The notes beneath the pieces are model-generated. The model made no database searches. It saw only the letters and a list, made by a program, of their open reading frames with translations, and was not told where the DNA came from. A program made the position numbers and the translations under genes. From the NCBI GenBank assembly GCA_030324005.1, contig JARDVH010000025.1:67170687-67234686 (forward strand): DNA of 64,000 nucleotides, written 5' to 3'. The number at the start of each line of letters is the position of its first letter. The first letter of the stretch is position 1. This DNA is from Negaprion brevirostris (taxonomy: Eukaryota). This document shows, one piece after another, positions 1,521 to 51,605 of the stretch.

Positions 1521-3609
1521 TCTATTGCCAATTTTTCTCATCAGGTTATAATAGACATTAGAAATGCCAGGGCAAAAGGGAATTTAAACTGCTTATCTTG
1601 CCCAGTAAAACTGAACACAGAACAACATATTGCATTGGTCATGGTGAATTTTTTGAAAACTGCTATTTAAAACGTATTCTTCTTGGCTAATCCCTGAGAT
1701 GCCAACAACTTTGTTGTCCTGATGTCTCCGGGAACTGAAGATTTATCTCCTGGATACTGGTCTAAACAAACTAAGGGAAAAAAAAACATAGGGGTATTAA
1801 AAATATGTGTTTTTCATTTTCTTGGAAAACTTGCACTCATTAGTTATTAAAATATTGAAGAAGGCAAACTAAAGGCTATTTGACTGAGCAGGGAGATTGG
1901 AAGGAAGGCACAAAGTCATGTTGCAATGAAGCTTGGAATTTTCTGACGTTGCCCGTGGCTAGGGTTCTCCGGCCCCGCTGCTGTGAGTAGAAATTTGGCT
2001 AAGCACCAAATTCTCCATTCTCGCTGCTTGCATTGGGGGCAGGAGGGGGGGAGGTGGGAAGGGGGTGGCATTAGACATTAGCGAATTCCAGTTGTAATCT
2101 CCAGAAATACACTCAACCTCAGCACAAAGTTGACAACCTTAGACTTGATGCTACCATGCCCCTCCCCTGAAAAATAGGGAGCCTAATTTTTAAATTTGTT
2201 GCTTGAACAGTAAATTGTGGAATCCATCGCACGCCCATCTTATAACCCACCACTGATTCCCACTAATTCTAGCGAAAATTAAAATAGGACAGGCTCTGTA
2301 AAGGGTAGTCAGTTGATCAACCAAGCAGAGAAGGTGAAAATTACCCCAGAGATTTCCAACGGAGACAGAAATCCTGGCTGGAGTCTAGCAGAGAGAAAAA
2401 AAATCAAATTAGCTTGACCCTGGAAAATCAGCCAGGGTCAGGAGCACAGTCATGCCAAGTTTATGCCGGGATTGCATTGGAGCGGAAAATCCTACTGAAA
2501 TATTTGCTACTCTATTGTGTGCAGGTGATGATTGGCAACATGTTCATAATCCATGTGAACAGCAAAACACACACAACTGTTGGACATAATGGAATCTTCA
2601 AAATTCATTTAAAAAGACACAAAACATGAATGAAATGCTGATCAGGACGGGACACCCAAATGAACAAGAATGTTAGTTTTAGTGAAAAGAGTGCTGTTGC
2701 CACTTTTCATGGAGTTATATTGATGCAAGTCAATTATTCAGGAATTGGGTTTGTGCTTCAAAGCAAACAATTCACAGCTGTACAAAATCCTCATGGCATC
2801 AGTGAAATATATGTTTCACCTGTATCTAGGACAAGGCATTGTTTGGTTGTAGAGGTTTTTAAATGTCTGCTCCAGAAGTTTGCTTCAAAGCATTCAGCCT
2901 TTTGCATTGACATTAACATGTAGCCAAATGTTGCTACTTTGCCTTCCTTTGTATGAAAATGAATTCAGGAAACCCAAGAGGTTGAGCTTGTGCAGAAGAT
3001 GAGAGCAGATCTGAACAAAGCTCTAACTAACCTGTGTTTAGGAGTGCATTACAAGGATCCTGAATTTCCTTGGGATTGTGGCACATCTTCACCAGTTCTA
3101 CATTGTCAGTGCCTGTTTGGGAATAAACCTCCCAAGTCTCCTGTGTCCAAGGAGACATGACCTGAGGAAGGATAATTTGCTGAGTGAACAGTATGCCGGG
3201 TGCACTTACTGGCAGGATTATACCCACTAAGGAGTTCCAAGCCTACAACATGTCCTATACCTTTGACAATTTACCTAAAAGTACTTTTGTGCCAAGACTT
3301 TTTTTCACACATTTGGCTCTAACATCCCTACAGAGCAGTTTTCCAGTGCCAGGATGTTATGCCCTCCCCGAAGGCCCCTCTGAGATATGTGCGCAGTGGT
3401 ATAAATACTCACTAGGTGTATTTAAATTGTGATTCCTCCTCCCACAGCTCCTATTGAATTTCCTGTTGGATACATGCTGGCACTTACAGTCGTACAGTGT
3501 AGGAAACGATTCAGCCCATTGTGTCTGTGCCAGCTCCTTGAAAGACCTATCCACCTAGTTGCACATCCTTGCTGTTTGCCCAATGTTTTCTCTTTTTTTG
3601 AGTGTATAT

Positions 3610-3880
3610 AAACATAGAGCACAGAAGGAGCCCATTCACCCCATTGTTTCCATGATGGTCGAAAAAGAACTCTTCAGTCTAATCTCATTTTCCCACTCTT
3701 AGAAAAAAAAATTCTCAAAGGACAGTGGAAGCAGAGTCTTTGGATGTTTTCAAAGCAGAGATAGATAGATTCTTGATAACCAAGGGGGTGAAAGGTTATT
3801 GGAGTTTGGTGGGACCTTACAGTTAAATCAGCCATGATCTTATTGTCTGGTGCAGCAGGCTCCTATTTCTAACTCATGTG
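3610..3880. mobile_element. CR1 3'-end fragments
   Basis: gtggaagcagagtc...gcagagatagatagattcttg...cagccatgatcttattg, typical of CR1 3' regions. Confidence 0.6.
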
Positions 3881-4179
3881 TTTGTATGCAGTACTCAGCT
3901 GTGGTTTAAATGGTGTTTACACTGCTCTATTATAACCTCCCTGCCCTCATACTCTGTGCCTTGGCCAACACAGGAATGTATCCCAAATGCTTTCTTAATT
4001 ACCTTATCTACCTTCCAGAATCTGTTTGTCTACATATCTCAGAATCTTACAATTTATTGTGCATACCTTGTGACCTCTGGATTGGAGACAAATCATCTCA
4101 GTTCAAGGACAATATTACAGATGTTCTTCAGGGCAATGTCCGAGTCTCAAAGTTCTTTAGTTGTTTCATCAAAGATCTT

Positions 4180-4600
4180 GCCTTCAAAAAGTGGTTTCTC
4201 ACTGATGACTGCACAGTGTTCAATTCCATTTGTAATATCTCAAATGACACATTCCTGAAAGGAAACAGTGTGTGTCCGCAAACAGCAAGACCTGGGCAGC
4301 TTTCAGTTTTGGACTGAAAGGCGACCAAAGTGTCAGGCAGTGGCTATCTCCACAAGGGAAAATCTCACCATTTTGGCTTGACGGTCAATGGCATTACCAG
4401 CAACAAATCTCTCGCCATTAACATTCTAGGGATCACCATTGAGCAGGAACCTAACTGAGCCAGACACATACATAGAGGCTATCGGAACAGGTTAGGAGAT
4501 GGATAGTTTGTGACGAAGGACTTCACAAAGCCTGTTCACCACGTACAAGGCACAAATCACGAGCAAGGAAATATTCTCGATTTTGTTGGATTAGTGCAAT
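4180..4600 (+). mobile_element. decayed CR1/L2-group LINE fragment
   Basis: ctgatgactgcacagtgttc (xDDCTVF) and similarity to 41990-42370. Confidence 0.6.
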
Positions 4601-4944
4601 TTAGTAAGTGTGAAGTGATGTGGTGAGGAGGAAACAACGTGGAATCGCAGTATTATGTCTAGATAGTACTGTTCTGAGGGCAGTGCTAGAATCGAGACAC
4701 AAAGTTGCTAAGGGGTTCAGAAAACANNNNNNNNNNNNNNNNNNNNNNNNNNNNNNNNNNNNNNNNNNNNNNNNNNNNNNNNNNNNNNNNNNNNNNNNNN
4801 NNNNNNNNNNNNNNNNNNNNNNNNNNGAACATTTCATTTTGAAAATAGGGGCACTGAGCACAAAACAAAGAAGCCAACCTAACATTTACAAATCTTTGGT
4901 TAGTCTTCAGTTAGAAACTTACTTCAAATTTTGGACGCACTTTT

Positions 4945-5290
4945 TTACTCATTCTTGGAATATGAACATCACTGACAAGGTCAGCATTTATTACTTATCC
5001 TTAATTGGCCTTGATAAGGTGGCAGAAGGTGGCCTTCTGGAACAGCTGCAGTCCTTGTGGTGTAGGTACACCCACGGTTGTGTTAGGGAGGGAGTTCCAG
5101 TAGCTTTACCCAGTGACNNNNNNNNNNAGCAAAGGAGCAGCAACATAGTCCCATGTCAGGATGGTATATGGCTTGGAGGAGAACTTGTACGTGGCACCCA
5201 TGCCTTTGCTGCCCTTGTCCTTCTAATTAGTAGAGGTCATGGGTTTGGAAGGTGCTTTCAAAGAAGGCTTAGCAAGTTGCTGCTCTGCAT
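4945..5290 (-). mobile_element. 3' end of the LINE family at 41770-42780, inverted
   Basis: gcatttattacttatccttaattggccttg is similar to the reverse complement of 42745-42772. Confidence 0.65.
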
Positions 5291-10764: not shown

Positions 10765-11307
<543 letters not shown>

Positions 11308-49452: not shown

Positions 49453-49530
49453 TTTTTTTTTTTGTTTACTTTATTCCAATCCAATCAAGTCAAATTAAAG
49501 CCAATTCAGAGTCCCAACAAGTTGGGACAT
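49453..49530 (-). mobile_element. U2-headed retroposon family copy B (3' end only, runs into gap)
   Basis: Near-identical to 51301-51363; poly(T) on + strand. Confidence 0.8.
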
Positions 49531-51278: not shown

Positions 51279-51605
51279 TTTTTTTAAATTTTTTTTAAAA
51301 ACTTTATTCCAATCCAATCAAGTCAAATTAAGGCCAATTCAGAGTCCCAACAAGTTGGGACATTCCCGATCCAAGCTGACAAGACAGGGCTCTCACCTCC
51401 TGTCTTGGGCTTGATCTACATGATCCAAGCTGTTTGGAGTAGGTGTAGCTCCTCCTCCAAGGCTTGATCTAATTTGCATCTTAGCCAAAAGGCCCAGATG
51501 CCGCTTTAAAAAATTGCTTCAAATGAAGCTGAAATGTAACCGAATGACTTCAACCAAGTGCAGCATGTTGACACTACACTTGATCTGAGCCAAAAGGCCG
51601 AGAAG
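51279..51605 (-). mobile_element. U2 snRNA-headed SINE-like retroposon, copy C (most complete)
   Basis: 51605-51573 reads CTTCTCGGCCTTTTGGCTCAGATCAAGTGTAGT = U2 nt 5-37 with one mismatch; structured body; AATAAA at 51308-51303; A tail. Confidence 0.9.

Follow-up and report, generated by a model that had tools for sequence, protein, structure and literature searches.

The window analysed here is the whole 64,000-nucleotide stretch of Negaprion brevirostris DNA (assembly GCA_030324005.1, contig JARDVH010000025.1, forward-strand positions 67,170,687 to 67,234,686), and coordinates refer to its first letter. It carries the last coding exon of a RUNX gene at 10765-11307 on the minus strand (RunxI domain, E 6e-54) and, 19-40 kb upstream of this exon on the same strand, three copies of a short element headed by a piece of U2 snRNA. 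These copies may be intronic to the RUNX gene, adding AATAAA signals in the sense orientation. Elsewhere in the window, an isolated strong hairpin at 35782-35859 (minus strand) resembles the Rfam family MIR845 at E 1e-4, below the gathering threshold.

Copy C (51279..51605, minus strand) is near-full-length, belongs to the younger of two subfamilies and is devoid of a clear target-site duplication. Read along the minus strand, it consists of U2 nt 5-40, a body of ~270 nt, AATAAA and an A tail, the last two as originally described. The assembly holds two types of U2, about 84% alike: one forms a 492-bp tandem array (L036-L038, contig C157 at ~37.355 Mb) and the other is a single gene (L031, contig C182). 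The head of copy C (51570..51605, minus strand) carries the nt-23 letter of the array variant and is identical to it at 35/36 letters; identity to the single-gene variant is 34/36, and the earlier count of 32/33 matches over U2 nt 5-37 holds against this second type. Rfam reports U2 in copy C at E 8e-6, a match that is genuine only across the first ~36 nt. Full copies elsewhere carry a head of U2 nt 1-40, and the element is ~310 nt long. The head ends at the Keno/Utopia site, U2 nt 38|39: these retrotransposons had been named as targeting U2 near the junction, and the U2 sequence downstream of both begins at nt 39 (PMC4640811).

Several features follow the head, all on the minus strand. A predicted 15-bp hairpin (51552..51585) pairs element nt 44-58 with the branch-point-pairing box of the head. 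An inner, older and altered piece of U2 nt 4-33 (51476..51502) is predicted to form a longer stem, and an octamer motif (51472-51479), present in 59/70 copies and possibly incidental to this inner stem, overlaps its end. Thus the original description of the body as non-U2 stands for most of its length and fails at element nt 108-139, which is this second U2 piece. Two related hairpin units of ~53 nt come next (51419..51470 and 51365..51417), the second weakly like the 5' hairpin of one LINE lineage. They are followed by a predicted 3' stem-loop (51345..51360), in which a C-G / T-A paired change separates the two subfamilies, and by the AATAAA signal with its A-rich tail (51279..51308). Copy A (30394..30687, minus strand) was said to share the head-body junction of copy C, and does so at 87.5% identity over 289 nt with its head partly deleted. 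Likewise, copy B (49453..49530, minus strand) shares the tail, as claimed, at 93% identity over 75 nt; it shows the 3' end only, its 5' part being hidden in an N gap of the assembly.

We searched the genome for an exact 21-letter head-body junction pattern and for an exact tail motif, which gave 1,044 matches (control 0) and 1,442 matches (control 0), respectively. A DNA search yielded 3,264 candidates, and each of the 40 that received a score was nearly complete, at 93-100%. On contig C1, 17/60 junction matches have a tail match nearby (79 tail matches), giving about 5,000 copies; truncation and gaps inflate this estimate, and the copy number is reasonably put at roughly 3,000-5,000. Only one copy was present in 33 random 10-kb stretches (262 kb without N), so the window's three copies in 21 kb form a local cluster. 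An extrapolation from window density to ~100,000 copies was ruled out by the random stretches and by the junction and tail counts. A second copy was present in 5/54 one-kb loci, one of which (L159) is probably an assembly duplicate. Seventy near-full copies fall into two subfamilies of 37 and 33 rows, the younger of which is enriched among them by best-hit sampling; divergence from their own column majorities is 4.1% and 6.6%.

The junction lies at U2 nt 38-40 and is constant. The original prediction turned on copies sharing one junction at U2 nt 37-40, and both the exact matches and an unselected sample bear it out: among 20 body starts sampled without regard to the head (from tail-chosen loci, random loci and the window), 19 show the same U2 junction and the 20th is truncated and has no U2. 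Within the young subfamily, the array-type nt-23 letter of the head is co-inherited with a letter of the body in 8/8 copies (p 3e-6). Among 30 tail-anchored loci, about 11 of which are cut by N gaps, none shows a shared LINE sequence upstream of the body. One could regard the copies as independent U2-LINE chimeras, or as a plain Keno 3'UTR, and the partner LINE described below does yield U2-headed copies, with junctions that vary (nt 34-58). However, the single fixed junction of the element, the linked letters and the lack of a shared upstream LINE at the tail-anchored loci make this origin extremely improbable. The element is one dispersed unit, repeated genome-wide as such. It has a head from U2 snRNA, is <500 bp, non-coding and poly(A)-tailed, and in these respects it resembles a SINEU. 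An older, shorter relative was seen at L266:1285-1525. Its head is U2 10-33, a single hairpin unit follows, and after a tail unlike that of the element come U2 39-53 and an A run; its score of 46 compares with 28 for the best of 300 shuffles.

The 5' ends of the element stop at U2 +1. For 54 of 60 listed junction copies on C1, starting points are scattered between U2 nt 1 and nt 28, and 11/54 junction-anchored copies begin at nt 1. The 10 letters upstream of these 11 copies matched neither U2 flank (0-5 of 10), and inspection by eye of 11 exact-head loci revealed no shared upstream extension. The element lacks a tRNA head, matches no tRNA/7SL/5S-type Rfam family and contains internal T4-T6 runs at three places, unlike classical Pol III SINEs, which have an internal promoter head and no early T runs. 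Pol III transcription is disfavoured because of these T runs. An origin of the body from tRNA or another RNA family was rejected, as the tRNA and Rfam searches gave no match to support it.

Folding predictions assign the element a structure more stable than that of its shuffled versions (z -4.9). Eight copies gave z values of -3.0 to -6.9, and eight random stretches gave -1.6 to 1.5. Element nt 44-58 is complementary, with some mismatches to a perfect reverse copy, to U2 nt 25-39, with 15/15 positions pairable, and the branch-point box is predicted to be paired at p of at least 0.9 in 40/52 copies; in U2 itself nt 34-38 are open (pairing 0.00-0.11). The first 15 nt of the body are thus predicted to fold onto the head, hiding the branch-point-pairing box. 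The fold-back arm may be a retained accident, since the head of a LINE copy (L284) has an inverted U2 piece too. The 3' stem pairs C-G in 29/70 copies and T-A in 29/70, according to subfamily. We counted the 252/263 pair as one compensatory event; the subfamily difference at 50/51, which could stem from CpG decay, was left uncounted. RNAalifold on the 70 copies recovered the structure only in part.

Three further ideas about the RNA were considered. The hairpin arm departs from a perfect reverse complement at 4 positions, of which 3 are A>G, as A-to-I editing would give; the A>G excess in stems is weak (p 0.035) and driven by common subfamily sites, and we keep editing as a lead only. An Sm site at the U run of nt ~97-102 was dismissed, for the motif expects a G behind the U run, and G comes next in 0 of 60 parsed copies (of 70). 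The octamer corresponds to the snRNA distal enhancer element; here it may simply follow from the inner stem.

The original prediction placed copies within U2 loci, and we found them there, both behind native U2 flanks and before U2 nt 39. In L106, the SINE lies directly behind a native upstream flank of the single-gene type, which keeps a PSE-like box at -61. An intact U2 gene lies 18 kb away from this locus, which is interrupted by an insertion near -90 and runs into a 4-kb gap; its SINE is ~80% like copy C. In L135, a whole array spacer and U2 1-38 are followed by a second head and the start of a body, and the contig ends 16 nt into that body. Partial, shorter U2 upstream flanks precede the SINE in L083, L084 and L105. 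The flanks of L083 and L084 span only ~45-70 nt, and these two may themselves be retrocopies. L105 and L106 both carry an insertion of similar sequence near -90 and may be duplicates of one event.

On the opposite side of the element, SINE tails are joined to U2 nt 39 in L062, L273 and L270. The tail is followed by U2 nt 39-109 in L062, by nt 39-48/50 and an apparent target duplication in L273, and by nt 39-53 and a new A run in L270. The earlier observation that no U2 3' half follows the tails therefore holds for the window copies (3/3) and fails genome-wide. L273 and L270 look like 3' carry-over from a source within a U2 gene. A narrow pattern joining the young-subfamily tail to the U2 3' half had 0 matches, and looser patterns had 4 and 11. 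These 11 comprise three SINE tails, the older relative (L266), three LINE tails, a tail-less broken U2 gene (the second match in L063), one locus whose upstream part falls in a gap (L268) and two chance matches (L269, L271). Among the U2-locus copies found, none unites the promoter, a complete element and the U2 3' half.

U2 loci showed further peculiarities. In L135, L134, L063 and L274, U2 array units are piled head to tail with inserted LINEs and SINEs. Young SINE copies and some LINE copies bear the array-type letter at nt 23. Three U2 genes (L032, L033, L034), two of them on small contigs, have a one-base 5' insertion and quite different 3' halves, and possibly derive from another organism in the assembly.

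The element also serves as a target for itself. All three matches (3/3) in which an A run is joined to SINE nt 39 are nested insertions: in L263 and L265 the tail abutting nt 39 belongs to a second SINE, and in L264 it belongs to a LINE. L263 is not a duplication, because a young-subfamily tail precedes an old-subfamily body. By our own arithmetic, with about 5,000 insertions and a 2.7-Gb genome offering about 4,000 sites of this kind, the chance expectation is ~0.01. Insertions at exactly nt 38|39 are rare, with 5 SINE cases and 4 LINE cases.

A U2-site LINE of Tx1/Keno type was expected, and a Keno-like Tx1 LINE was found. Its tails abut U2 nt 39 in L061, L063 and L274 and SINE nt 39 in L264, and a 3' junction at U2 nt 39 is that of Keno. 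ORF1 encodes ZCCHC3-type RNA-binding domains and zf-CCHC zinc knuckles, which we take to mark Tx1. ORF2 is interrupted by assembly gaps; one piece has relatives with RT and zf-RVT (2 matches), and a 76-aa fragment of its start matches Exo_endo_phos at E 0.086, below the Pfam cut-off. Among 44 candidate LINE 5' ends, 30 were read, and blast detected a U2 head in 20/30. These heads end at lineage-specific positions from nt 34 to 58. In L302 and L308, U2-headed LINEs stand behind array flanks with a junction identical to that of dispersed copies. Two to four stacked U2 pieces, one of them inverted, occur at the LINE 5' ends in L282, L286, L290 and L284. With roughly 5,000 copies against 44 candidate LINE 5' ends, the SINE is about a hundred times as numerous, and most copies of both are dispersed.

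The same prediction expected this LINE to share the 3' tail of the SINE, and here it failed: the partner shares target and head only. Blast gave no match between the SINE body and the LINE UTRs, and no match to two LINE 3'UTRs was significant; the body is not a Keno 3'UTR. A derivation of the body from LINE UTRs, U2 flanks or the spacer was also discarded, as 3/42 comparisons reached p < 0.05 and all three were short and unconvincing. The element could instead descend from a Keno-like LINE that lost its interior, making it a SIDE or non-autonomous LINE in place of a SINE, which would change its name and leave the cycle the same. Indeed, the inner U2 piece and hairpin unit resemble the start of a LINE lineage headed by U2 1-35, and the second unit gave shuffle p values of 0.006-0.042 in seven related LINE copies, a post hoc and non-independent comparison. 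However, the value was p 0.14 for an eighth LINE copy, from a different lineage, and blast to the LINE 5' or 3' parts gave no lasting match. With a 3' end that is unmatched to the LINE and a weak 5' likeness, descent from a deleted LINE appears unlikely.

We examined the marks left by insertion. Duplications of at least 9 nt flank 10/65 SINE copies compared with 3.6% of shuffled pairs; the remaining 55/65 are without one, unlike LINE copies, several of which, when dispersed, have duplications of 12-19 nt by eye. The SINE 3' flank is T-pyrimidine in 30/90 cases versus 198/1,007 (p 0.004), a weak bias in a count that includes a few mis-parsed tails. TCTG is not enriched in SINE flanks (2/90).

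Together, the data argue for a SINEU-like retroposon that has no promoter of its own, is likely transcribed from U2 promoters and likely owes its mobility to the Keno-like Tx1 LINE, and we consider this reading probable. As judged from sequence, the copies in U2 loci are the likely promoter source of the family. The originally proposed cycle, in which an element residing in a U2 locus is transcribed from the U2 promoter and dispersed by a LINE, gains support from the U2-locus copies and the U2-site LINE; transcription from the U2 promoter and the LINE protein that does the copying are what we infer from them.

The cycle would begin with the LINE endonuclease nicking U2 at nt 38|39, where the junctions are observed. 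From a SINE placed behind the U2 promoter, Pol II would produce an RNA that starts at U2 +1 and thus begins with U2 nt 1-38. Initiation there is suggested because 5' ends stop at +1 and the T runs disfavour Pol III; the +1 limit also fits a head taken from mature U2 RNA. AATAAA would then direct formation of a poly(A) RNA, and carry-over copies suggest that it is sometimes cleaved slightly later, within U2 nt 39-53. The LINE ORF2 would copy this poly(A) RNA, making a common tail unnecessary. Most insertions would go to loosely preferred A|T-pyrimidine sites, where the promoterless copies are likely dead. Rarely, an insertion would re-enter a U2 gene or the head of another copy, and annealing of the U2 part of the cDNA would create a seamless junction and a new source. 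Such seamless re-entry has precedent in R1 copies that carry 28S bases (PMC2718515) and in rDNA SIDEs (PMC3414825). The fold-back hairpin, itself predicted, might mask the branch-point box so that the RNA does not act as a broken U2, a purpose at which we can guess. More tentatively, and with slightly more doubt than conviction, we propose that the SINE is activated only upon return to U2 nt 38|39, that use of its own head as a target leads to nesting and clustering, that the hairpin evolved as a mask, and that the family originated separately from the crocodilian SINEU.

An alternative account is that a single template jump onto U2 RNA supplied the head, and that a master elsewhere uses a chance Pol II signal, upstream or internal, the U2-locus copies being dead by-products of LINE targeting. 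Stacked extra U2 heads with variable ends, which occur on SINEs (L008, L021, L118) and on LINEs (L282, L290), are what such jumps would leave, and crocodile SINEU-2 has stacked heads as well (PMC4494074). Furthermore, we saw no intact master, and the octamer is there in most copies. However, this octamer may merely reflect the inner stem. The head ends exactly at the nick site, a common upstream extension is absent from all 11/11 nt-1 copies and from the 11 exact-head loci, and the nt-23 letter of the array U2 recurs in the linked young subfamily. A single template jump is thus quite unlikely in our judgement.

Several known systems invite comparison. As the original prediction noted, snRNA-headed SINEU elements are described from crocodilians, and Kojima 2015 (PMC4494074) reported them from crocodilians only; passages of the later PMC5786205 and PMC5381603 cite just that case. 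According to PMC4494074, SINEU-1/-2/-3 resemble our family in a U2-derived head, a short non-coding body, poly(A), internal T runs, no recognised internal promoter, stacked snRNA heads, thousands of copies and a Tx1-type partner without a common tail, there being no LINE with the tail of SINEU-1. They differ in preferring a Mariner element and in a transcription source that is not known, a question that Kojima left open since the U1 and U2 promoters lie outside the RNA (PMC4494074). In contrast, the head of the new family ends at the Keno site, native flanks precede those copies that occupy U2 genes, the element serves as a target for its own insertions and its body is predicted to fold back on the head. 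The two families probably have separate origins.

Keno and the U2-headed Tx1-11_Crp (PMC4494074, PMC4640811) share with our system the insertion point at U2 nt 38|39, and the partner LINE has a Tx1-type ORF1 and U2 heads. Unlike Keno, the SINE is non-coding, about 310 nt long and without a LINE tail, and both SINE and LINE are mostly dispersed. R2 SIDEs and the R2/R1 hybrid SIDE are likewise non-autonomous, occupy an RNA gene of the host with which they share a transcript, and depend on a site-specific LINE (PMC3414825), and R1 forms precise junctions by annealing target-derived 5' 28S bases, which also travel to off-target sites (PMC2718515). SIDEs are, however, rDNA-bound internal deletions with a ribozyme and the LINE 3' end (PMC3414825), whereas the SINE uses a Pol II snRNA gene, retains the 5' end of its target as a head and is widely spread.

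In the literature searched, we found no paper on this family or on a like element outside crocodilians; the family may already be catalogued as a repeat. snRNA-headed SINEs, U2-headed Tx1 and Keno are already known (PMC4494074). What is new is a SINEU-like family whose proposed transcription route, through candidate U2 loci, can be tested. It supplies candidate source loci in U2 genes together with a partner LINE and a precise point of nicking, making the transcription question testable, and, if the proposed cycle is true, it would explain by example how the transcripts of snRNA-headed SINEs arise. A site-specific LINE system here probably feeds a dispersed SINE, and the SINE's thousands of U2 5' fragments would mislead snRNA annotation in such genomes.
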